Under the pieces are notes generated by a model, which was not told where the DNA came from, made no database searches, and saw only the letters and a list, made by a program, of their open reading frames with translations. Positions 619 to 16,411 of a DNA stretch of 23,664 bases are shown here, in pieces. Source of the stretch: a virus (taxonomy: Duplodnaviria; Heunggongvirae; Uroviricota; Caudoviricetes); IMG/VR virus record IMGVR_UViG_2663763326_000004, positions 1 through 23,664 of that record. One strand, 5' to 3'. Positions within the stretch are counted from its first letter, which is position 1, and each line of letters starts with the position of its first letter. The translations under genes were made by a program, and so were the position numbers.

Positions 619-1242
619 TCACTCATCATCTTCTGTTTCGTACTCCACATCAGAAAGCCTTACCTCAAGCTCCAAAGACGTCGTGAAGCCGCTATTATTG
701 AGAAAATGTGTAACCTTAGTGATGGTCCAGTCCTGCTCGTCTATGACGCGCTTAAAGCCTGACACTTTAACCGGTGTTTCCGTGTAAATATCTGCCCGTC
801 CGGTAGCCAGGCTGATGGAGAACTCTGCTACACCCCGTTGCAGTTTATCCCACTTCGCCTGAGCGGCACGCATGGCCTGTGCTTTCGTGGCATATACCGT
901 GGTCAGGGCAAAAACGTTGTCAGCCTCACCGGCCATGTATTCACCTTCGCGCGCTTCCGGTACTTTTGGCGCTTTCTTCTGCCTGACCGGTTTCGCTTTC
1001 GGGTGCTCCAGTGCGCGCAGGTGTTTCTCTTTCTTTTTGCGTTTCAGTTTTACCTTCTGCTTTTGCGGCTTCGGGTCTTTGGTGTGTAACCACTTTGCCG
1101 TTACGCCGGTGTAGGCTCCACGGTCAGCAATCGCAAAATGATGACGGTCGCCGTCGCTGCGGGTGATGGTGACCTGCTGGATTTTTTTACCGCTGGCCGT
1201 CACCCCCTGCCCCGCTTGCGTATTTTCATGAAAGGAGATCAC
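619..1242 (-). pseudogene. D: Tail protein D (late control gene D), C-terminal fragment, separated from its N-terminal half by the IS insertion
   Basis: The ORF runs from the IS junction to a stop at 619. Its first codon is a GTG formed partly by IS-terminal sequence, and its position between U and ogr matches P2 gene D. Confidence 0.8.
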
Positions 1243-1350
1243 TCAATAACTTCCATCGAGATCGGGTAATAACATTTGAACAGATCGCTGAATAACATCG
1301 ATGGAGATCACTTTTGACTCATTTTGTTATTCAGTGATCTCCATCAATGT
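1229..1350. repeat. IS21-family left terminal repeat region (multiple transposase-binding repeats)
   Basis: A terminal GGAGATCACTCAATAAC is followed by an internal inverted copy GTTATTCAGTGATCTCC and by ATCGATGGAGATCAC. Confidence 0.55.
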
Positions 1351-1409
1351 TATTGGAACTTCACAGGTGTGTTGATCTGTATCTTTTGCCATTCCGGTAA
1401 AGGATACCT

Positions 1410-2951
1410 ATGCCAACAGTTCCAATTTCTATGAGAAAACTTAAAGAAATTCTTAGGCTTAAATACGGTGTTGGACTCAGCCATCGACAAATTGGTCGTA
1501 GTCTTGCAATCTCCCCTTCCGTTGTATCCAGATATGCTAATCGGGCGGCTCAACTTGGCATAAAGCAGTGGCCCTTACCTACAGGATGGGATGATACAAA
1601 ACTAAAACATGCGTTCCTTCAGACCCAGGTTAAGATGAAGAAGCACTCTCTGCCTGACTGGGCTACAGTACACCGGGAACTGCGTAATAAATGCGTGACG
1701 CTGCAGCTACTCTGGGAAGAATACTGTGAGCGTAATCCAGGCGGTTTTTACAGCTATAACCATTACTGCCGGATGTACCGTGAATGGCTCAAAACCACTT
1801 CACCATCAATGCGTCAGGTACATAAAGCTGGCGAAAAACTTTTCGTTGATTACTGTGGACCTACCGTTGGCGTTACCGACCCTGAGACCGGAGAAATAAG
1901 AACTGCTCAGGTCATCGTAGCTGTTCTCGGGGCATCAAGTTACACATGGGCAGAGGCCACCTGGTCTCAGCAGCTTGAAGACTGGGTGATGAGTCATGTT
2001 CGCTGCTTCCAGTGGTTGGGTGGCGTTCCTGAACTTGTTGTTCCGGACAATCTGAAAAGCGCCACATCCAGGGCATGTAAGTATGATCCTGACGTTAACC
2101 CTACCTACCAGCAGATGCTTGAGCATTATAATGTCGCAGTTTTGCCTGCGCGGCCACGTAAACCGAAAGATAAAGCCAAAGCTGAAGTTGGCGTTCAGGT
2201 TGTTGAACGCTGGATCATGGCCCGAATCAGGCATGAGATCTTCTACAGCCTTGCATCGCTTAATCAGCGCATTCGGGAGTTGCTGGAAAGACTGAATAAC
2301 AAAATAATGCAGAAGTTGGGTTATTCACGTGCAGAACTCTTCATCCAGCTTGATAAACCCGCACTGAAGCCTCTTCCTGAAGCCAGTTACAGTTACACCC
2401 TGGTGAAGAAAGTCAGAGTTCATGCCGATTACCACGTGGAAATCGACAAACATTACTACTCGGTTCCATGTTCGCTGTTAGGCCAGCAACTGGAAGCATG
2501 GATCTCCGGAGAACTGGTAAGACTCTTCAATCAGGGGCAGGAGGTTGCTGTGCACCCGCGCAAGCGTACTTATGGCTACAGTACCCGCAACGAGCACATG
2601 CCTGAAGCTCATCGACAGCATGCCACCTGGACGCCAGAGCGTCTTCTGGAATGGGCGGGGCACATAGGCAGTGAAACTCATAGTTATGTGCTTCATATAC
2701 TGAACTCTCGTCCACATCCGGAACAAAGCTATCGCTTCTGCCTTGGACTCCTGAACCTTCATAAAAAATACAGTAAAGCCAGACTTAATGCAGCATGTGC
2801 AAGAGCTCTGAAAACAAAGGTATGGCGTCTGTCAGGTATTAAATCGATCCTGGAAAAAGGTCTGGATAAACAACCTGTTCAGGATCCAAAACCAGATCTG
2901 TTATCCACGATGGAACACGAAAACGTACGCGGCAGTGAGTATTACCACTGA
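1410..2951 (+). CDS. istA: IS21-family transposase IstA (513 aa)
   Basis: N-terminal helix-turn-helix region followed by an integrase-like catalytic core. It is immediately followed by istB, the typical IS21 arrangement. Confidence 0.9.
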   Translation: MPTVPISMRKLKEILRLKYGVGLSHRQIGRSLAISPSVVSRYANRAAQLGIKQWPLPTGWDDTKLKHAFLQTQVKMKKHSLPDWATVHRELRNKCVTLQLLWEEYCERNPGGFYSYNHYCRMYREWLKTTSPSMRQVHKAGEKLFVDYCGPTVGVTDPETGEIRTAQVIVAVLGASSYTWAEATWSQQLEDWVMSHVRCFQWLGGVPELVVPDNLKSATSRACKYDPDVNPTYQQMLEHYNVAVLPARPRKPKDKAKAEVGVQVVERWIMARIRHEIFYSLASLNQRIRELLERLNNKIMQKLGYSRAELFIQLDKPALKPLPEASYSYTLVKKVRVHADYHVEIDKHYYSVPCSLLGQQLEAWISGELVRLFNQGQEVAVHPRKRTYGYSTRNEHMPEAHRQHATWTPERLLEWAGHIGSETHSYVLHILNSRPHPEQSYRFCLGLLNLHKKYSKARLNAACARALKTKVWRLSGIKSILEKGLDKQPVQDPKPDLLSTMEHENVRGSEYYH

Positions 2952-2962
2952 TACGGGATCCA

Positions 2963-3712
2963 ATGATGAATCATCTTTACGAACAACTGACCGCACTTAA
3001 ACTCACCGGCTTCCGTGATGCGCTTAAAAAGCAACTTGCTCAACCGGGCACATACCAGGAGCTGGGCTTCGAAGAACGCCTGTCATTACTGACAGCAGAA
3101 GAACTAACCTGCCGTGAAAACAGGAAGGCAGAGCGTCTGATCAAACATGCACGGTTCAGACTTAATGCTGAGTTATCAAAGCTGGATTATCGTAACAATA
3201 GAGGGCTGGACAGGGCCCTCATCCGTTCACTCAGTCAGGGAAACTGGTTAACCCTGAAACAAAATATTTTACTGACCGGGGCCACCGGCAGCGGTAAAAC
3301 GTTCCTGGCATGTGCACTTGGTCATAATGCCTGCCGACAGGGATACAAGGTCTACTATTATCGCCTTAAAGCGCTGATGGAACAGTGCTATCAGGGGCAT
3401 GCTGATGGAAGATACAGCAAACTTTTGACCAGGCTGAATAATAGCGATCTGCTGCTTCTGGATGACTGGGGGCTGGAACCTCTCTCATCAGAACAGCGTA
3501 GCGACCTGCTGGAAATAGTGGATCTGATGTACCAACGAGGCTCAATCATCGTAGTGAGCCAGTTGCCGGTGGAAAACTGGTACAAAATGATCGGAGACTC
3601 CACACATGCGGATGCCATCCTAGATCGACTGGTTCATGGCAGTATCAAGATCGAACTTAAAGGAGAATCAATGCGGAAAATACAATCTCCGTTGACCGAA
3701 GGAGATCAGTGA
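2963..3712 (+). CDS. istB: IS21-family helper ATPase IstB (249 aa)
   Basis: Walker A motif GATGSGKT and Walker B motif LLLLDDWG, in a DnaC/IstB-like protein directly downstream of istA. Confidence 0.9.
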   Translation: MMNHLYEQLTALKLTGFRDALKKQLAQPGTYQELGFEERLSLLTAEELTCRENRKAERLIKHARFRLNAELSKLDYRNNRGLDRALIRSLSQGNWLTLKQNILLTGATGSGKTFLACALGHNACRQGYKVYYYRLKALMEQCYQGHADGRYSKLLTRLNNSDLLLLDDWGLEPLSSEQRSDLLEIVDLMYQRGSIIVVSQLPVENWYKMIGDSTHADAILDRLVHGSIKIELKGESMRKIQSPLTEGDQ

Positions 3713-3744
3713 AGGTAATTTAAAAACGGTTCTGTGAAAGTGAC

Positions 3745-3785
3745 ACGAACCGATCTCCATCGATGTTACTCACCGATCTCCTTCA
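3745..3785. repeat. IS21-family right terminal repeat region
   Basis: Two direct copies of CCGATCTCC (ACCGATCTCCATCGATGTTACTCACCGATCTCC) at the right IS end, inverted relative to the left-end repeats. Confidence 0.55.
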
Positions 3786-4368
3786 CGGTAATACGCACCG
3801 CTTTGAGAAACAACAATTTTCCCATTTTTACCGACACCTCACCGCCGTTGCGTTCTGCAAGACGGGTCAGGAATTTCGCATCAGACTCCTGCGACTGGTC
3901 GATGTGCGGGATTTTAATTCCGGCCAGTGACGGAGCGACACTGGCTTCCAGCCTGTTACGGGAGGCTATCGCCTCAACAATCGCACCGAGCGTGGTGTCA
4001 TGCCAGGAGCCTTCACGGCGGGAATTGAGCGTCCCGCGGAAATCTGCACTCCGGGCGCGGATGGTGACCACATCCGGCGCGCCCCGGTGTTCAACCTCAT
4101 CAACGGTGAATTTCCCTTTGCATACCAGGGCAAAACCTTTCCAGCCGATATACACCGTCAGGACAGCGCCACGAACCGGCAGCCCGACCTGCCCGTCGGC
4201 ATCGTTCAGTTCAATATCAAGCTGGTCAGCCTCAAAGCCCCGGTTATCCGTCAGGGTCATGCTCATCAGACGGTCACTGATATTGCCGGTAATATCCCTG
4301 CTGTCGAGCATCAGCATGTAATCCGGCGTCAGCGTACTGCCTGCATCAAATGTCAGTGCATCCAGCAT
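3766..4368 (-). pseudogene. D: Tail protein D, N-terminal fragment truncated by the IS21-family insertion
   Basis: Starts MLDALTFDAGSTLTPDYMLMLDSRDITGN, with its ATG overlapping the U stop (TAATG). The last few codons (KEIGE-stop) are read from IS-terminal sequence. Confidence 0.8.
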
Positions 4369-4861: not shown

Positions 4862-7309
4862 TTAACCGTCATGCATCATGCTGGCACGGGAGCGCGCACG
4901 TTTATCCCGCTCGTATTTTTCGAGCGCATCCTGTAACTGGCGGTCAAGCTGTGTCCCCGGCGCAGTACCACCCGTCAGGCTGATGTGATATTCGTTTTTA
5001 CTCTGGTCCACATAAGAGCGGCCAGCCGGTGCCGTGACCGGCTGATAAGTCTGATAGCCTGCATAAGAGCTGGTCGCCGGAATATAACCACCGGTGCCAT
5101 ACGTGGCGGCATGAGTTCTGGCGGCGGTCTGGTCAAGTGTGTCTGACTCTTTGTTGATAACACCGAGTTTTTCCAGTACCCAGTCAATACCGCTGCGCAG
5201 TTTGTTGAACGCATTAAGCGGCAGCATCAGCGCGTCAGCCAGTGCCTGCCCGAACATGACCCCCGTGTCACGGCAACTGTTCAGGGTGTCCTGAGTGGCT
5301 TTGACCGGGGCAATCAGGTTTTTAAACCACTGCCACGCGGCCTGTAACTTTTCACCCAGCCAGTCAAACACCGGCTTAAGTGGCGTGAACAGTTCCCCCA
5401 CCGGCGCAAATGCCACTTTCAGCCCTTCAACCACACCGCCAAAGAATGCGCTGACAGGCTCCCAGTATTTACGGATAAGCAACGCCCCGGCGACAATTGC
5501 GGCCACCACGGCCACAACCGGCCAGCTAATAGCCCCGATGGCGGTCATAACAGCACTGCCAACCGTCGTGAAGACTGCCCCCATTGCGCCTGCTGCCGCG
5601 ATGATGGCATTGATGCCGGTGATAACCGGCCAGGCTGCGAGGCCAATGGCACCGATGACACCAATCAGCGCCAGCGCGCCACCGGCAATGATGCCGATGG
5701 TTGACACCAGTGATTTGTTTTTCTGGATCCAGCCGTCGAGTTTTAACACATACTTTGTGGCCGTCTGCGTGAGCTTACGCAGCGCGCCTTCCTGCTGGTC
5801 AAACAGGTCAGTCCCCACCGCCTCATAAGCGGACTGAAACTCTTTAAAGTCACCGCCTAGGTTGTCCTGCATGATATTTACCAGCTCGGCGGTCTTCCCG
5901 TCTGAGGCTTTAAACGCAGCGGTCAGTTTGTCCAGCTTTCCGGTTGAGGCGGCAGTCATCAGCACGGCGGCGGCTGAGCTGGCCTCCTCCCCGAAAATAG
6001 TTTTCATGTATTCAGCCTGCTGGGCAGTACCGAGCCGGTTTTTCTCAAAACTGGCCTGCATTTCTTTCAGAATGGTAAATATTGGCCGGGTGTTTCCCTT
6101 GCTGTCTGAGGTTTTCACTCCAAGCTCTTTGAGTGCATCCCATGCTTTTCCCGTCGGTGCCTGCAGGCGGCTTAACACGGCACGGCTTCCCGTCCCCGCC
6201 ATTGAGCCTGTGATTTTTGCATCATGCAGCGCCCCGACCATTGCGGCGGTTTCTTCAATGCTGACACCGGCATTTTTTGCCACAGGTGCGGCATAGGTCA
6301 GCGCATCGCTCATGCCGTCAAAATCGGCGGCGGTTTTGTTCATCGTCATGGAGAGAACATCCCCGATATGAGCGACCTTATCGTTTGAAAGCTGAAAGGC
6401 GGATTTCATCCCCATCAGCAGGGCGGCGTTTTCTTCCATCGTGCGGCGGTTCGCCAGCGCCATATTCAGCGTGACCGGCGTTGCCGCCTGAATGGCATCA
6501 ACATCCCCACCCGCTTTCGCGATGATTATCTGTGCACCGGCCGCATCATCCGCCGAGGCGGCGGTATTGTCGCCGAGCTGGCGCGCCTGTTTGCGTAGTG
6601 CGGTCATTTCGGCGGAGTCTTTTGCCACTCCGAGCACGGCCTGCAATTCTGAGTTTTTCTGCGCAAACTCATAACCGGGCATCAGCAGCTTAACTCCGGC
6701 CATCGTTCCCGCCGCCGCAATCCCCACACCGGCAGCGCCCACCGAGGCCATATTTCCGGCCAGTTCCTTTCCGGCCTGATAACGCTGTTTTACTGCGTTA
6801 AGTTTTGCCTGTTGCGCACTGACACGCGCCAGCGCATCACGCTGACGGTTAAGCTGTGCGGTGGTTTCACTGATACGGTTTTTCAGTCCCTGCTCATCAT
6901 GTGCAAGATTGCGGGTATTAATTCCCACAGCGGCCAGTTCCCGCTGCTGGCGTTTAAGGGAATCTGTCAGGCGGTTATATTTCGCCTGTAAGTCCTCCGC
7001 CGCACGCTTTGCGGATTCCAGCACTTTCGCCTGAGCACGGGTCGGACGTTCAGTGTTTTTAAACTGTGTGGCAAGGGCTTCGGCCTCCTGCCGTGCCTTT
7101 TCAAGTGCATGACCAGTCACGGCGAGCTGTGCGCTGGTCTTGCGAAATCCCTCAATACGGGATGCGTGACCGTTCAGCTCGCGCAGTGATTTTTGTGTTT
7201 CCCGGATATCCCCCGACAGCGACTTGCTCGCTGTGCGGATGGATTTAAACGGGCGGGATGCCTGGTCAACAGCCCTGAGCAATACCTGTAATTTTACATT
7301 GTTACTCAT
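4862..7309 (-). CDS. T: Tail tape measure protein T (815 aa)
   Basis: Long coiled-coil N-terminal half and a Gly/Ala-rich hydrophobic segment. The 815-aa length matches P2 gpT and the start ATG overlaps the E' stop. Confidence 0.9.
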   Translation of the reverse strand: MSNNVKLQVLLRAVDQASRPFKSIRTASKSLSGDIRETQKSLRELNGHASRIEGFRKTSAQLAVTGHALEKARQEAEALATQFKNTERPTRAQAKVLESAKRAAEDLQAKYNRLTDSLKRQQRELAAVGINTRNLAHDEQGLKNRISETTAQLNRQRDALARVSAQQAKLNAVKQRYQAGKELAGNMASVGAAGVGIAAAGTMAGVKLLMPGYEFAQKNSELQAVLGVAKDSAEMTALRKQARQLGDNTAASADDAAGAQIIIAKAGGDVDAIQAATPVTLNMALANRRTMEENAALLMGMKSAFQLSNDKVAHIGDVLSMTMNKTAADFDGMSDALTYAAPVAKNAGVSIEETAAMVGALHDAKITGSMAGTGSRAVLSRLQAPTGKAWDALKELGVKTSDSKGNTRPIFTILKEMQASFEKNRLGTAQQAEYMKTIFGEEASSAAAVLMTAASTGKLDKLTAAFKASDGKTAELVNIMQDNLGGDFKEFQSAYEAVGTDLFDQQEGALRKLTQTATKYVLKLDGWIQKNKSLVSTIGIIAGGALALIGVIGAIGLAAWPVITGINAIIAAAGAMGAVFTTVGSAVMTAIGAISWPVVAVVAAIVAGALLIRKYWEPVSAFFGGVVEGLKVAFAPVGELFTPLKPVFDWLGEKLQAAWQWFKNLIAPVKATQDTLNSCRDTGVMFGQALADALMLPLNAFNKLRSGIDWVLEKLGVINKESDTLDQTAARTHAATYGTGGYIPATSSYAGYQTYQPVTAPAGRSYVDQSKNEYHISLTGGTAPGTQLDRQLQDALEKYERDKRARSRASMMHDG

Positions 7310-8316: not shown

Positions 8317-9507
8317 TTAATTGCTGTTAACCGAGGTGACCAGATTTGCCAGGTATTTATCGGTAATACGCTGGCGCAGGGTCAGGTTTTCGAGAGGAGG
8401 CACCGGGGTATAGTCGTAGTCGATATACAGTTTGCCGGCCTTGAGGGTTTCCGCATCGTTGGATTCTTCGCTAAACCAGCAGGTCGCATCCACGATATAG
8501 CCGTTTGTTTTCAGCTCACGGAATTTGGCATTGATGCCGTCAACGATGTCGCGAATCAGCGTTGCGGTGATGGGCTTGTCCACCGCCCACATGTGCGCCT
8601 CAGCCATCGTGTCGGCCAGCACCTGCGCGGTGCGGGTGTAGTTTTCAAAGAGGAACAGCGGGTCATCAGAGCAGGTACGGTTACCCCAGAAGCGGAAACC
8701 GTCACGGCGAATCAGCGTTGTGACACCTGACTCGTTCAGCAGGTCAGCATCGGTGCCGGACTCCTGCAAATCCCAGAATACGGACGCACTGATGCCGGTA
8801 ACACCGTTTACCCCGACGTTGGACAGCGTTTTATGCCAGCCCTGCTCCTGGTCGATTCTGGCACGCAGACCCAGCGCACGGGCGGTGGCATACGCGGTGG
8901 CGGTGGTACTGGTGACCGTATCCCATGCGAGGAAATCCGGCCAGATTACCATCAGCTCACGCTGGCTGAAATTCTGGCGGTAGGCTTTCACCTCGGAAAT
9001 GGTTTTACAGCCCCATGCGCTGATATACCCGAAAGCGCGCAGCTTCTGGCAGACTGATGCCAGTGCAACAGCCACCTCTTTGGTGTCCAGTCCCGGCACA
9101 CCGAGAATACGCGGTTTAACACCGGTTACCGACTCTGCCGCCAGCAGGGCTTTCAGTCCGGTATACTGACCGTTTTCGTCAGTGGTGCCGATGATATTGG
9201 AAACGGTCTGCGCGAGTTTCGTTTCTTCGTCGTCGCCGGTGCCGTCTTCCACACGCACGACAACGGTGACCGGTTTTGACTGGTCAGCGATGGCCTGCAG
9301 CGACGCCGCCAGCGTGCCTTTTTTACCGGCCTTTGCAATTGCGCTCTGCACATTGGTAATCAGCACAGGTTTATTGAGGGGGAAGGTTTCCGCATCCGCA
9401 TCGCTGGCCGTGCAGACCATGCCGACAATGGCAGTGGATACAGTGGAAATGACGCGGGTGCCGTCGTTAATCTCCAGCACCTGCACGCCGTGATGATAGT
9501 CACTCAT
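8317..9507 (-). CDS. FI: Contractile tail sheath protein FI (396 aa)
   Basis: 396 aa starting MSDYHHGVQVLEINDGTRVISTVSTAIVG, with a GGAG ribosome-binding site 8 nt upstream. Matches P2 gpFI. Confidence 0.9.
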   Translation of the reverse strand: MSDYHHGVQVLEINDGTRVISTVSTAIVGMVCTASDADAETFPLNKPVLITNVQSAIAKAGKKGTLAASLQAIADQSKPVTVVVRVEDGTGDDEETKLAQTVSNIIGTTDENGQYTGLKALLAAESVTGVKPRILGVPGLDTKEVAVALASVCQKLRAFGYISAWGCKTISEVKAYRQNFSQRELMVIWPDFLAWDTVTSTTATAYATARALGLRARIDQEQGWHKTLSNVGVNGVTGISASVFWDLQESGTDADLLNESGVTTLIRRDGFRFWGNRTCSDDPLFLFENYTRTAQVLADTMAEAHMWAVDKPITATLIRDIVDGINAKFRELKTNGYIVDATCWFSEESNDAETLKAGKLYIDYDYTPVPPLENLTLRQRITDKYLANLVTSVNSN

Positions 9508-9600: not shown

Positions 9601-10081
9601 GATAAAGAAAAGGCGAGCAATCAGCCCGCCTGCCTTGATTTGTACTCTTTCAGTTTCCAACTGACAAATTACGTAACCAAAACTCTGTCAAATCTGACAG
9701 TCTGCTTTGAGCGAAAAACAGGTATTGAGATACATAATAAATCATCTCAATTTTCAACTTTTCTGCCACTTAACATCTTGAGTAGTAAATAGTACAAAAC
9801 TATCTACTGCCGAAGGGCTCTAGGAAGTATGGTTTCTGCACAATAAGACTTATATCGGCTCACGGGGAGCCAAAAGATATTCATTGCCTAGAATTTGCAG
9901 ATGAGGTGGTAATCTGTACTGGGGCGGTACTGCAACAGCTATGTATATTTCCACTGCGGTAATCTGTACCAGCAGGTAGAAGCTGTTATACATCACCGCC
10001 CCTGTAGTGCTAATCCGGAGATAGCACTACTCTCATCAAGGCTTGTTCTTCCATAAACCGCAATAGGTGTTAGTTTTAGCC

Positions 10082-10939
10082 TTAATGTAAAATTAACAAT
10101 TGATTCAGACGCTTATGTAATTTTGTGGTTCTAAATGTATGATGATCGTAACTCATACGCATATAACTATCTATCTCATCCAGACGCATGTTCTTATTTA
10201 CAGATATATCAGTTTCATACATCATTTTTAATATACATGTAAAGTCATGACCATTGCATATAGAAAAATGATCTGGCGACATTAATTCTAATTTACGCAT
10301 TTCATTATATAAATTTTTCGCATTAAAATCCTTATCAGTACGACTCCTGCTAAGCACATGATTTATATATTTGGTTTCATCAACTACAACATCTGTCCTG
10401 TTAATACTTACAAAATTCCTGTAATTCATTCCTTTGAAATTAAGATTGCTATGTGTAAGATAATTGTACCATTTGAGAAGTCCGATTTTATAGCATGCAC
10501 AAAGGATGTTCATCTTTACATCCTGACAGAATATATCGGCCAATTCCCCTTGAATTAATTTTCTATCTGTATGTGACATAATGAATTTATCAACCGCACC
10601 ACCTTTTACTAACATCATTTCAAGGTCATGAGCATCAGTATAAAAAATCCCCTCGTGATTTATTCCGCTTAACTCATCAAAGTCCGCGTCACATACACCA
10701 TACACAGCATTATTACCTGCACGACGTAATTGACTAACAGCCAATATTACTTCACGTTTTCCATTTTCAGGTGATTCATAAATGATTCTATTATCAAGCC
10801 GATATGCATTGAAAAATCGGATATCTGAAATGCCCTCAACCACAATCAATATACAACGTTGATACATTTCATTTCTGAATAAAAGCATCATACTACTCAA
10901 CCAATCATCTTCGCGAACAGCATTGCGTAATGACATCAT
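10082..10939 (-). CDS. DUF4435/TOPRIM-like (OLD-family-type) putative nuclease, AriB-like effector of a PARIS-like system (285 aa)
   Basis: N-terminal ILIVVEGISD (TOPRIM glutamate) and downstream VYGVCDADFDE (DxD metal-binding motif). GC content is very low, and the ATG follows the upstream ATPase stop with no gap (TAA ATG). Confidence 0.7.
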   Translation of the reverse strand: MMSLRNAVREDDWLSSMMLLFRNEMYQRCILIVVEGISDIRFFNAYRLDNRIIYESPENGKREVILAVSQLRRAGNNAVYGVCDADFDELSGINHEGIFYTDAHDLEMMLVKGGAVDKFIMSHTDRKLIQGELADIFCQDVKMNILCACYKIGLLKWYNYLTHSNLNFKGMNYRNFVSINRTDVVVDETKYINHVLSRSRTDKDFNAKNLYNEMRKLELMSPDHFSICNGHDFTCILKMMYETDISVNKNMRLDEIDSYMRMSYDHHTFRTTKLHKRLNQLLILH

Positions 10940-12184
10940 TTACTCGTTTCCTTCTGAAAGCTGTTGGCTTTCATTTCTATTTCTAATCATTTCATATAGA
11001 TCGTATGTTAATTCCCAATTCTTACTAATTACTTGTGGTGAATGAGTAGCAATAATGACCTTTTCATACTTGTTAATCTTTTGTATTTTTTTGAGAGAAT
11101 CCAAGAAAGTTTGTTGCCAGGCGACATGTAATGATATTTCTGGCTCGTCTATAAGAATTACTTTTTGTGAAACAAAATCGAAAATCAAATTAAAAAGAAG
11201 AACTATTTGGTTCTGTTCACCTGATGAAAGCAAATTACGATCAATAACATCGCCATTGTGACTTTTGAAATAAAATCCGTTATCTCTATCAATCATCACT
11301 TTTTTAAAAGCTAAAACCTTTTCTTTCAAAATTGATTCAAATAAATCAATTTTTTGATGTAATGTCTGAAACGGTGACAATTTTCCAAGGGCATCTTCAA
11401 TATATAGATCCAACACACTTAGATATTCATTGCTACTATAAAAACTTGTGCTTTTTTGAGGCATTAGCTCGTTATCAGCCTGAATAAGGCCATAACGCAT
11501 ATAATGTCGACGTTTATCTTGAATACCATTTAAGCGATCTTGAATATTTTCTGATGAAAATCGTTTTGATTGCTCTAAACGCTCAAATAATCGAATAGGA
11601 AATGTAGCGTCTAATTTTTGTGATAATGCAGCGGAATCATCTTGTGCATTTTTCATTAAATATTTTAATTTTCTAGCACATAAGTCAATGACTGTTTCAT
11701 CAACAGCTTTGACTTGTAATCGATCTGCACATATAAAAGATACGTCTTCTTTCGATGTAATATGACTTAACACATCCGAAGATAATGGTTTATCAGTTCG
11801 TAATTTTTGTTTTGGTTTAACATCCCCCCTATGCAAGCTTACATAAAATAACTCTTCCATAATAGATTCATCTGTCTGTAACTTGAGTCTTTCTTCCGTT
11901 CTGTTTCCTGAGCTATTATCCAGATGATTCAATATTAAACCATCTTTATTGGTGTCATGAGTAATTGAAACAGAGCCACCTTGAAAATCAATTTTAATAA
12001 AATCAAAATTAAGTTTACAGAGAGCATTTAATTCATTTGTAAGAATACTATTGATGATTTTAAGAATCATTGTCTTACCATATCCATTTGGACCAGTAAG
12101 CATAGTAATTTCATTGTTATCCAAGGGAATTTCATAATCAAGGAGACCAAATAGTTTTTTTACTTTTAAATGTATCAATTTCAT
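10940..12184 (-). CDS. ABC/SMC-like ATPase (AAA_15/AAA_21 type), AriA-like sensor of a PARIS-like system (414 aa)
   Basis: Walker A GPNGYGKT, an ABC-signature-like LSSGEQ, Walker B VILIDEPE and an H-loop IIATHSP, with a long helical insertion between the nucleotide-binding halves. AT-rich codon usage is unlike the flanking phage genes. Confidence 0.75.
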   Translation of the reverse strand: MKLIHLKVKKLFGLLDYEIPLDNNEITMLTGPNGYGKTMILKIINSILTNELNALCKLNFDFIKIDFQGGSVSITHDTNKDGLILNHLDNSSGNRTEERLKLQTDESIMEELFYVSLHRGDVKPKQKLRTDKPLSSDVLSHITSKEDVSFICADRLQVKAVDETVIDLCARKLKYLMKNAQDDSAALSQKLDATFPIRLFERLEQSKRFSSENIQDRLNGIQDKRRHYMRYGLIQADNELMPQKSTSFYSSNEYLSVLDLYIEDALGKLSPFQTLHQKIDLFESILKEKVLAFKKVMIDRDNGFYFKSHNGDVIDRNLLSSGEQNQIVLLFNLIFDFVSQKVILIDEPEISLHVAWQQTFLDSLKKIQKINKYEKVIIATHSPQVISKNWELTYDLYEMIRNRNESQQLSEGNE

Positions 12185-12199
12185 ATCAACCTCGCAGAC

Positions 12200-12280
12200 G
12201 ATGAATTATAACCATTTATTACATGGCGCATATGAAATGCAATATATCATTGTCATGAGTTGCATTTCAAACATATGCCC
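12200..12280 (-). promoter_or_regulatory. Candidate sigma70 promoter(s) with an embedded inverted-repeat operator, upstream of the ATPase gene
   Basis: On the coding strand, TTGAAA, an 18-nt spacer and TATATT, followed by a second perfect TATAAT about 20 nt before the ATG and a GAGG ribosome-binding site. The inverted repeat GAAATGCAA-N17-TTGCATTTC brackets the first -35 and -10 elements. Confidence 0.4.
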
Positions 12281-13214
12281 CAACATCAATGCTAAATCCG
12301 TGATTAAAATTAATAAACTTCTGGTTTTTGCAAATAATTTCTTGCCCTAATAGTTTGGAAATACCTCTTTTAAATTTATAGTGAATAATATTACGCCCAT
12401 TTAGTTCTCTCTTTGCAGAACTGAACATGTCGGGAGCTACTGTGTGGAGAAACACTGAAACGATCGTTAGTGAATATTTGCACACTGGTGATAGTACTAA
12501 ACAGCCCTTTGGTCATGTCCGAAAAATAGTGACTCGTACAACATGATCGATGTGATAGCATTTATGACAGTGAAACATAACAATCACCTTTGAACATTTT
12601 CCATACGTGCATTATACCTATTAAATCTAAACAAAACAAATAGATATAAAATATTCATCCGCGTATCTTCATGCTCTCATATACCACATACGGGAGCCTT
12701 AACATCAAGTACTAAGCACGTCGTGAAGCTGTTTCCGTTAAGACGACTTTGCACTACTTGACTGATTAGCCATGCCTGCTTGTCTATCACACATTTAAAG
12801 TTTTTCATCGCTAACGTAGTTAGTCCATTCCCTTGAATGGCGTTTTACCAGTCTATATATGACAAATATCGTACTTTTTCCACATTCAGTCCAATTCATT
12901 CACCGCTCCCGATTCACCTACAACACCCTCTCAACGACGTTCTCTGTACCTGTAATACCGGCGCAAATTGCGTCGAAAATGTCGTTCTGCATCGCATAAA
13001 CCTTCATCAGATTTGGCCTACAATGCAGCGAATAGTCTGAAATTAAAAACCGATGATGATGGACTGTACTGTTCATGCAAGTCTGGTCGCTCTGTGCCTC
13101 ATCAAGGAATGAATAATGATCTTGGCGACGTCTACTCTTGGCACAGAGCGGACTGTCAGATTAGTTTTTACTCTGTGCCATAGATGAGTAATCTCACACC
13201 AGATCTAATACAAT

Positions 13215-13793
13215 TTATTGCGGCATTTCCGGCCATTCTATATCCGGAGCATCTTCCGGCTGAACGCGATTCAGTAACACACGGTATTTTTTCCAGTGTG
13301 TCAGGCTTAACTTTTCTTCCTCGGTAGCCATATCTAAATCGACAGCATCCTGCAGCGTGGCAATGATTTCACCTGCATATGCAATCTGCTCTTTCTTCTG
13401 AGACTCCGCCGCTCTGACAAGCGCATCACGCTCTGCATTCTCATCATTCACCCACGCATTTCCGTTCCATTTCTGATAATCCCCCTCCGGGGAAATGGCT
13501 GTCACGTCTGGAGGTAATGCGCCAAGTTCAGAAATATAAATGGCTGCTCCCGTTTTCGTTTCGTAGACAGTCTTTCCGCGATGATCTTCCATCAACTCCC
13601 ATTTCATTTCATCTGCATTGAAAACGGCTGCATAACCAGCAGGAATATCAGGTGGTGCAATATCTGTACTGTTTGCAGGCAGGCCAGTATACGGCGGAAT
13701 ATATGCATCACTTTCGCCAATAAACTCATTGGTTCCATCAAGTAAATTGAAAACGCGGATAGTTTGTGCTTCTGCACTCATTCTGAAAGCCAT
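13215..13793 (-). CDS. G: Tail fiber assembly protein G (192 aa)
   Basis: Directly downstream of H with its ATG overlapping the H stop (TAATG). Size and position match P2 gpG. Confidence 0.8.
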
Positions 13794-16411
13794 TATGCAA
13801 GCCTCACAATATAGTTAAATGCGATGTTTTTGACGGTGTTTTCGGTATTACCAGTAGCATTTACGGTAATGGAATGCCCGTGTGAGCCAATAGCAACAGT
13901 GTGTGAATGTGCACCAATACCAACAGTATGGTTATGTGCTCCAATGTCGACTGTATGTGCATGATTGCCTGATGAACTTGTAGTCGTAGCACCTTTATCA
14001 CTTCGCGGAACACCATAATCTGCACCGCCTGATTGCACGCTCACAGCAAAACCGACGGTATGTGTATGATTGCCAGAAGTATTGGTTGATTTTGTGCCGT
14101 GGTTAAACGTACTGACTGTTTTTGTCCCGTAATCAAATGAACTGGTCGTTTTCGTTCCTAAGTCCGTATTTGACGCACTGGCGCTGTGAGTATGCGATTT
14201 AATCCCGTCCTGTTCCTGTGACAATACGGCACGCCCACTGGCGGGTTTGCCCTTGATTGTCCAGCCGCGCATATCAGGAATAACACCAGAAGGATAGGCA
14301 ATAGCCAGTTTCGGATATGCAGCCTTATCAAACGTCTGCCCCTGCATGATCGCATAGCCTGCAGGTGGTGTATCTGATGGCCACGGCAGCGGAACACCTG
14401 GCGGAAACGCTTCAATATCTTTCGTCCCGTCAAAGGTTACGCCGTTAATTGTCCTTGCCGTTTTCAGCTTTGTTGCTGTAGCAGCATTGCCGGACAGTTC
14501 GCCTGAAAGACCGGCGCTGAAGGTTTGTTTCGCCGCCCATGTCTGGGCTTCGTCAATAATTGGCACACGTCTTGTGGTGATCGTGCGACTTCCCGGATTT
14601 CCTGAAATACGCACCATAAAAAAGCGGTAGTTCGCTTTACTTACAGTGCTGCGCCATACATGCATTGAGCGCCCCGCACCGGAATCATCACTCGGACCAA
14701 CTGAGATGTTTATCAGGTTGCCATCAATGACGCCCCAGTCCATACCTTCGGGAATGTTGGTCATGTTATCAAGCCGAACGGTTATCAGACTGCCCGGCAC
14801 AAAGTCGTAGGTCTGCCAGTCCAGGCTGGAGAGTTTTGCCACTGCACCGCCGATACCCAGATTCAGGGGAAGTGAATACGAGGTGTAGACTTCCCGCCAT
14901 TCGCTCCACGAGCTGCCGGTATAGACGCGCTCAAACGTGCGACCTTTAAGGGTTGCACCTGTTCCGGCAGTTGTATAACGCTGCCATACGTTAACACCAT
15001 CAAAGCGCCTCAACACTTCCAGAATCCCGAGGACTGTCACGCCGTTTCCGTCCAGTATTGGACCGTTGGTCGCTTTACCTGTAACGCTGTAAATACCTGG
15101 TGAAGTCACCTCATTCAAATCCCCGTCGTAATAACGACTCTCTGACTGATGACCGACTCTTAACCACGGTTCCCACTGTGGATTTGATGCATCCCAGCTT
15201 GCCGCAAGGCAGCGGACATACATATTTCCACGGCGAGTGGTATAACGTTGCGTTCTTCCATAATTCCCGCCTTCGAGGATCTCAAGCATCCCCTGAGCAA
15301 AGCCGCCTTCCTCTGGATAATTGCGTTCATATGAAGCTATAGCCGAGCTACTGTTACGCCATAAACCAAGATGCTCGGCGGCTCCAAGCGTATTCAGGTC
15401 TATAGTCGTACTCAAAGGGCGGGTAGCAGATTGAGTGTGACGCCATACGCCCCACGGACCATCAGTGCCATTCCACTTATTGGCGAGTTTACGCATGTAA
15501 ACATTGCCGTCTCTCGTGGTAAAGCGTTGCGTACCTGCAAAATTGCCGGCAGCAAAAACCTCAAGCACACCGACAGCATTATCTTCCGGGAAATTTTTCT
15601 CCAGTGTTGCGTTAGTTGAGGTAGCTTTAGACCAGATCCCCAGATAAGCCTTAACGGGACCAAATGTATTCAGGTCGGCATCAACCGGCATTTCGCCATT
15701 GTTTTTCATAAACGTCAGACTGGTAACGCCAACATTGTCCAGAAAAGCTGATTTATCCTGGATATCTGCACCATTCTGATTTTTCGCCAGACGTGAATTT
15801 GCGTTGTCATTTGCTGCCTTGACCGCTTTTGGCGTTGCCGCCAATGACTCACTGGTGCTGTTTGTTGCACTGCTTAACTGAGTAAAACCTTTTTCTGTCA
15901 GCGTGGCGTCAGGATGGCGGCGGGACTGCTCATGTTCTGCGATTTTGTCATCGACGTAATCCTGCGTCGCCATCACTGTGCTGGCATCAATACTCAGCTC
16001 AACGGACGCCACGTTACTGACAATAATAACCATGCGGCAGGTCTGCGCACGCCCGGAGCCTTCAGCGAGTTCAGGCTTATAGCTTTCTGCCATGTTGGCG
16101 ACCGCAATCAGTGTTCCGGCATCGTCATACAGACCAAGCTCACGCATCCAGAAGCCGCCCACTTCGGGCGGTACAACCAGTTCAGCCACGATATAGTTTT
16201 TATTCTTATTATCCACGCTGACTTTATTCAGAGCGTGACGCCAGACCTCATGCACCAGTTTCGTCTGACCGGCATCCGGCACCGGCAATTTGCCATTACC
16301 GTCACCCACGGCCATTGCAGACAGGTTTACTTTTTTCCCGCCGGGGACAGTGGCGGCTGCCAGCTTCGCGGCTCCGGCAGTAGTGATAACGGTTTTAAAT
16401 TTCGTGCTCAT
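13793..16411 (-). CDS. H: Tail fiber protein H (872 aa)
   Basis: Conserved P2-type N-terminus [30 protein letters not shown]. The central region has three tandem repeats of about 60-70 aa and the C-terminus has repeated HxH motifs (GNHTHT, GNHAHT, AHNHT, AHSHT, SHGHS). Confidence 0.9.

Follow-up and report, generated by a model that had tools for sequence, protein, structure and literature searches.

The PARIS defence cassette of a P2-like E. coli prophage probably travels with a σ70 promoter of its own, and the perfect inverted repeat that brackets this promoter is probably an incidental feature of the E. coli copy; we regard this combined reading as likely. According to the mechanism that we propose, the promoter, here called P1 (TTGAAA-N18-TGaTATATT), would be of the extended −10 type and would drive transcription through a short leader into translationally coupled ariA-ariB, so that the defence genes would be expressed, presumably constitutively, from the resident P2-like prophage and independently of the flanking Ogr-dependent late tail operons. 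Considered by itself, P1 is very probably a working promoter, with a predicted start at ~12233-12235 and a leader of ~50 nt. The perfect repeat, on the other hand, would be a derived state private to E. coli, reached from an ancestral 8/10 quasi-palindrome by two point changes that made it 10/10, most likely through neutral drift or through quasi-palindrome correction by template switching.

The 23.6-kb window (the whole stretch of DNA analysed, 23,664 nucleotides) is part of a P2-like E. coli prophage. On the minus strand its genes run in the order J, I and H (13793-16411), G (13215-13793), a 3.7-kb insert, FI (8317-9507), FII, T (4862-7309), U, D and an intact ogr (319-600). The insert sits at the variable G/FI site (Z/fun), the position at which phage P2 has Z/fun, and it holds two genes on the minus strand. 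The first (10940-12184) encodes an ABC/AAA_15 ATPase of 414 aa (PADLOC AriA, 1.9e-25; Pfam AAA_15 and AAA_21), and the second (10082-10939) a DUF4435 protein of 285 aa (PADLOC AriB, 2.6e-21; Pfam DUF4435, 5e-25), DUF4435 being here the TOPRIM-nuclease family of AriB. An AriA-type ABC ATPase and an AriB-type DUF4435/TOPRIM gene are adjacent in the same operon, with the ariB start codon abutting the ariA stop (10939/10940), and the pair is identified as a PARIS (AriA/AriB) system. The window AriA matches the solved AriA (8UX9) weakly and in the C-terminal ATPase part alone (E 5e-11), and a sequence search with the window AriB found no solved relative; its relationship to the B185 PARIS, for which structures have been solved, is a distant one. 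Pfam reports no DNA-binding domain in either AriA or AriB. Of 5426 complete E. coli genomes, 13 carry identical cassette DNA, ST131 strains among them; in one of these, S65EC (NZ_CP036245.1), the promoter is at about 1016609-1016638. The 1030 bp that separate G from ariA have no RefSeq annotation, and a tRNA scan of the window found none.

Several observations concern the state of the prophage and the downstream end of the insert. The prophage's own gene D is interrupted by an IS21-family element (window 619-4368): gene D fragments at 619-1242 and 3766-4368 flank an istA-like gene (1410-2951) and istB (2963-3712). Because gene D is split in this way, the prophage is probably defective while PARIS is intact. 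In strain S65EC, the same prophage carries a HEPN-domain gene outside the window (L175 15144-16466), and as this gene lies in the gpA-gpQ hotspot, the prophage has at least two candidate defence loci. The insert ends in a good intrinsic terminator on the minus strand (AGGCGGGC...GCTCGCCT plus a T run, window 9611-9631), located ~100 nt ahead of the FI start codon, which divides ariAB from the late tail operon. Two strong hairpins lie directly 3' of the ariB stop (window 9921-10030, minus strand; −56.5 kcal/mol, z −6.3). This hairpin region moves with the cassette in relatives at 76-92% identity; the consensus fold is kept in part, and its covariation term is unfavourable.

The initial annotation had placed a promoter directly upstream of a defence operon, consisting of TTGAAA, an 18-nt spacer and TATATT on the coding strand. 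All three elements are there, and the genes that they precede are the PARIS pair. On the minus strand, the −35 hexamer TTGAAA (5/6) occupies 12270-12265, and after a spacer of 18 nt follows TATATT (12246-12241), preceded by TGa (12249-12247), which together make an extended −10, TGaTATATT (12241-12249). The element is 56 nt upstream of the ariA ATG (12184-12182). It has the features of a σ70 extended −10 promoter, namely A at position 2 and T at position 6 of the −10 hexamer, the TGn motif and a −35-like hexamer 16-18 nt upstream, and it is correctly placed before, and conserved with, the gene that it would serve; the 18-nt spacer is suboptimal and counts against the promoter reading. When both strands of the window were searched, P1 was the sole site combining at least 10/12 hexamer matches with TGn. 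When the 300 nt upstream were shuffled with dinucleotides preserved, 1% of the shuffles gave an equal or better match, a figure that rises to 13% without the TG requirement. Control of ariAB by the late activator Ogr was ruled out, since a search for Ogr-type TGT-N12-ACA sites near P1 found none. The region is AT-rich (34% GC) and could be subject to H-NS silencing.

Downstream of P1, the predicted 5' UTR contains a conserved block (12185-12227, minus strand) that includes the Shine-Dalgarno sequence GAGG (12193-12190) and is common to more relatives than P1 is. Within the predicted leader we noted a mini-ORF, ATG TAA TAA (window 12216-12224, minus strand), which reads ATG TGA TAA in several relatives; it has no clear Shine-Dalgarno sequence and is probably fortuitous. 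The predicted 5' end of the P1 transcript, ATTTCATAT (12230-12238), shows 9-nt perfect complementarity to the ariA start region, ATATGAAAT (12178-12186). Pairing between the leader 5' end and the start codon was considered and rejected: the fold does no better than shuffles (z −0.9), and the pairing is absent in relatives with TTG starts.

The initial annotation had also pointed to a second, perfect TATAAT nearer the ATG, and this hexamer is indeed found at 12210-12205 on the minus strand, where it may form a weak second promoter. Could it be the working promoter, with TTGAAA-N18-TATATT an AT-rich look-alike? The perfect −10 lies 20 nt from the ATG, and the block that bears it (12227-12185) is more widespread among relatives than P1 is. 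However, the hexamer has neither TGn nor an acceptable −35 (ATGCGC at best), scores 4.9 as against 10.7 for P1 and would give a leader of just ~13 nt. Several relatives lack the critical −11 A or −7 T (TATAAC in L093, TGTAAT in L097 and L096, TGCAAT in L090), and in every close relative the best promoter is at the P1 position. We consider it quite unlikely that the proximal hexamer takes the place of P1.

Loci were fetched for AriA relatives of 60-91% identity from Salmonella, Kluyvera, Morganella, Erwinia, Enterobacter, Pectobacterium, Rouxiella and metagenomes. Other routes yielded less. A contig scan with the single AriA protein reached no close relatives; an alignment-based AriA scan gave over-general motifs and relatives of 27-42% identity only, the loci of which were left out; and a pattern scan of viral contigs returned mostly chance matches together with identical E. 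coli contigs. BLAST against phages and plasmids found only a Yersinia phage ATPase (coding region alone) and one Rouxiella plasmid. The genomic contexts of ariAB are unrelated to one another. In Salmonella, transposase remnants and a PIN-MazE pair adjoin the cassette, and in Morganella it is adjoined by phage lysozyme remnants; elsewhere it follows gpD or gpA of different P2-like prophages, adjoins a Lamassu LmuB gene or a reverse-transcriptase system or, in one case, is carried on a plasmid.

We determined where homology to the window cassette begins by BLAST of the cassette against the relative loci. In window coordinates, the 5' end of homology is at 12970 for L085, 12525 for L093 (Morganella), 12276 for L133, 12272 for L086 (representing L086-89, Salmonella), 12261 for L136, 12249 for L097, 12227 for L090 and L096, and 12224 for L132; in the 70% relatives, homology begins at the start codon. 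The Salmonella and L133 homologies start 2-6 nt upstream of the −35 hexamer. As homology ends at 12276, 12272, 12261 and 12249 in independent contexts, P1 forms the 5' edge of the mobile unit.

Within the conserved segment, the promoter elements are well kept. The −35 hexamer TTGAAA is invariant in the window, L085, L086-89, L093, L133 and L170 as well as in the metagenome copies L150, L151 and L164, and TGnTATATT is kept in the window, L085, L086-89, L136 and L097 and in the same three metagenome copies. A 5-nt ATGAT duplication in L093, L133 and L170 recreates the arrangement as TTGAAA-N18-TGaTATGAT. In the Kluyvera and Erwinia loci (L090 and L096), the P1 stretch is swapped for non-homologous sequence, and there a simple weight-matrix scan finds the best promoter, TTGTTT-N17-TAGAAT, 60 nt from the start codon, the distance in the other loci being 49-67 nt. 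The promoter claim of the initial annotation holds up well against this comparison: P1 is the top-scoring promoter in relatives, its distance to the start codon is conserved, and the element accompanies the cassette across contexts. The most widely conserved non-coding block is the 3' part of the leader, 12227-12185. A separate palindrome, TGATAT-N5-ATATCA, has its centre over the −10 and the start site in L086, L093, L133 and L097 and matches at 5/6 in the window; a perfect TTATCATTGATAA occurs at the promoter region of L097 and in the Rouxiella plasmid.

Upstream of P1, the 1-kb region between G and ariA is pieced together from P2-type relics. First comes the stretch that usually follows G, with a stem-loop (13214-13115), and after it a fragment of the P2/186-type L/X gene junction (head completion/tail protein X; 12908-13030, 73-80% identical) and a gene D 3' end with a decayed ogr pseudogene (12440-12816, minus strand; ATG at 12578). 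The L/X fragment is misplaced between G and the PARIS cassette, and Morganella ariAB loci have X and lysozyme remnants upstream. The ogr/delta zinc-finger copy reads MFHCHKCYH... before it runs into frameshifts and stop codons. Small ORFs of the spacer have no family matches and overlap the ogr pseudogene frames. This D-ogr block, at 69-74% identity, also stands ahead of ariAB in other species (L099, L136, L090 and L096), which suggests that the cassette once occupied the D/ogr end of a P2-like prophage before it moved to G/FI together with its upstream relics.

We now turn to the inverted repeat. It is real, and its arms are one nucleotide longer than the initial annotation had claimed: 10 nt each, perfectly matched, with 17 nt between them. 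On the minus strand, the left arm, TGAAATGCAA (12260-12269), overlaps five −35 bases and reads AATGCAAC when the next base is included, and the right arm, TTGCATTTCA (12233-12242), overlaps the last two −10 bases and the predicted start. When the 300 nt upstream were shuffled, a perfect 10-nt repeat with a loop of 3-40 nt occurred in 2% of cases; for the 1030-nt spacer the figure was 4%. The site drew attention precisely for being perfect. The P1 match and the perfect repeat are each somewhat beyond chance, with neither overwhelming on statistics alone.

The initial annotation read this arrangement as the layout of a repressor-controlled promoter. The repeat does lie over core promoter elements, but the remainder of the comparison goes against an operator. 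The 10/10 repeat is found only in the E. coli haplotype and in the metagenome copies L150 and L151. In Salmonella, Morganella, L133 and L170, the arms read TGAAATaCAA and TTGCATaTCA, an 8/10 match, in which each arm difference is one-sided, pair-breaking and non-compensatory, while the promoter hexamers are intact. L136 and L097 also have the 'a' forms of the arms, and for this reason these forms are probably ancestral and the perfect repeat derived. The loop between the arms is 17 or 22 nt among relatives owing to a 5-nt insertion. In L085, which at 93% DNA identity over 3.3 kb is the closest relative, and in the independently sampled metagenome copy L164, a 7-nt deletion takes out the right arm and spares the −35, the spacer and the extended −10. 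Half-sites are thus neither conserved nor co-varying in the homologous promoters. A pair count slightly above shuffles in alignment A4 is not counted as covariation, as the window sequence itself was the source of the structure, and the cells with both sides changed stem from rows that are non-homologous here (L090, L096 and L132).

The geometry and the surroundings of the repeat point the same way. Between the centres of the half-sites lie 27 bp, or about 2.6 helical turns, a separation unlike that of ordinary dimeric operators. The arm motif has no other copy in the window, does not recur at other promoters of the element and is absent from the rest of the S65EC prophage, the C/cox immunity region included; control by the prophage C repressor was ruled out, with the motif missing from the C/cox intergenic region and from the remaining prophage. 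No cognate regulator gene was found near P1, just as the initial annotation had remarked, the decayed ogr pseudogene being the only regulator-like sequence. With LexA, λ CI, TetR and LacI-type operators the repeat shares its position over the −35, −10 and start site, but it differs from them in having half-sites 27 bp apart rather than adjacent (~10 bp), half-sites that are not conserved, no second copy and no cognate regulator gene. Judged from these sequence comparisons, the repeat is probably not a conserved repressor operator, which we consider unlikely.

What remains to be weighed is an operator acquired in E. coli itself, where a trans-acting host repressor would occlude the core promoter. 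Both lineage-specific substitutions in E. coli restore pairing, and this could reflect selection. Pairing-restoring changes are, however, just as much the known outcome of quasi-palindrome correction by template switching. The sole concrete repressor candidate is CytR, the octamer pair of which, AATGCAAC-Nx-GTTGCATT, is sited between two CRP sites (PMC3454398). On the minus strand, the arms give AATGCAAC-N15-ATTGCATT, which matches this pair at 15/16 in the canonical inverted orientation, and both derived substitutions raise the CytR match along with the symmetry. CytR tolerates half-site spacings of up to ~three helical turns, spacings longer than the usual ones being reported as possible but not seen in nature (PMC3454398). 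The 15-bp spacing here is outside the usual 2 or 10-13 bp. CRP sites flank almost all natural CytR operators, whereas around P1 only chance-level matches with 3 mismatches are found. The repeat also differs from CytR operators in having no link to nucleoside metabolism and in the degeneracy of its octamers in the orthologous enterobacterial promoters, and the CytR-like motif is found nowhere else in the prophage. The match was, moreover, found after the fact among many possible regulators. A resemblance to what we take to be NsrR-like half-sites (TTGCAT-N5-ATGCGC) amounts to a 10/14 match only.

What is known of other PARIS promoters bears on repression in both directions. A plasmid copy of the B185 PARIS protects K-12 when expressed from its native promoter (PMC9122126, PMC11464382), and hence does so in the absence of any prophage-encoded regulator. 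In K-12 the E. coli O42 PARIS was silent under its native promoter and became active once Ptet drove it (PMC9122126), which makes repression of some PARIS promoters conceivable and speaks for an acquired operator, as do the perfect symmetry and rarity of the repeat over the −35, −10 and start site. Neither study describes a dedicated PARIS regulator (PMC9122126, PMC11464382). Set against the alteration of the repeat in Salmonella, Morganella and other relatives and its deletion in L085, these points leave a genuine, E. coli-acquired operator unlikely. The specific version, in which the E. coli PARIS promoter would have gained a two-octamer CytR operator and a nucleoside-sensing host repressor would keep the abortive-infection system repressed, is a low-probability lead that we regard as highly improbable. 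Were it true, PARIS expression would respond to nucleosides, and release upon nucleoside build-up, e.g. from phage-induced DNA breakdown, would be a host metabolic input into prophage immunity.

The repeat might instead act at the RNA level, as the initial annotation had also suggested. RNA initiated at P1 has its 5' end within the right arm and is unable to form the hairpin, so this reading is restricted to read-through transcripts from the late V-G operon or from a relic ogr promoter, on which the hairpin might serve as a processing site, as a stabiliser or as an insulator of ariAB from late transcription. A promoter-like TTGTTT-N17-TATAAT relic does exist upstream of the ogr pseudogene. The full potential hairpin (12224-12282, minus strand) comprises the 10-bp inner stem, a 4-nt internal bulge, a 5-bp outer stem, which is an imperfect extension (GCATA, 12278-12274; TATGC, 12232-12228), and three more pairs. 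Read-through RNA of 12288-12218 folds at −23.4 kcal/mol (z −3.06), and 1 of 200 shuffles folds equally well. Yet the homologous regions have no equivalent fold (z +0.65 to −1.6) and form differing structures, P1-bearing relatives carry no compensatory changes, and Rfam, searched at gathering thresholds and at E-values up to 1, returned nothing relevant and no match to the hairpin. Nor is it an intrinsic terminator: no U-tract or T run follows the stem, and the terminator scan has no entry there. A function on read-through RNA is, in our view, very unlikely, and we continue to favour an incidental repeat that happens to bracket a cassette-borne promoter.

P1 reveals no new regulatory principle. 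It does give a precise predicted promoter for a divergent, so far unstudied PARIS subtype present in some ST131 and other clinical E. coli, and it marks the 5' boundary of a unit that recombines among prophages, plasmids and defence islands, which aids cloning of such systems with their native control. If the repeat proved to be an operator for a host factor, it would illustrate how a toxic defence module can be wired to host physiology in one particular lineage.

The cassette resembles the B185 PARIS (8UX9, 8V45 to 8V49) in being a two-gene operon of ABC ATPase and DUF4435/TOPRIM protein on a P2/P4-type mobile element. It differs from it in the length of AriA, 414 aa in the window vs 464 aa, and in its promoter, the two promoter sequences being unrelated. 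The closest parallels to P1 are the extended −10 promoters found on 'moron' and defence cassettes of prophages, among them the native promoters from which hotspot systems of P2/P4 elements have been expressed (Rousset et al. 2022, PMC9122126). Whereas the systems of that study are at the gpA-gpQ hotspot, the window cassette is at G/FI (Z/fun), and P1 is a predicted promoter with a suboptimal spacer. Like them, P1 combines near-consensus hexamers with TGn, does not depend on a late activator, there being no Ogr site, and is self-contained and borne by the cassette inside a region of phage structural genes. P1 is, in short, very probably an ordinary cassette-borne promoter, and both the kind of defence system that it would serve and the kind of prophage variable site at which it lies are known ones.
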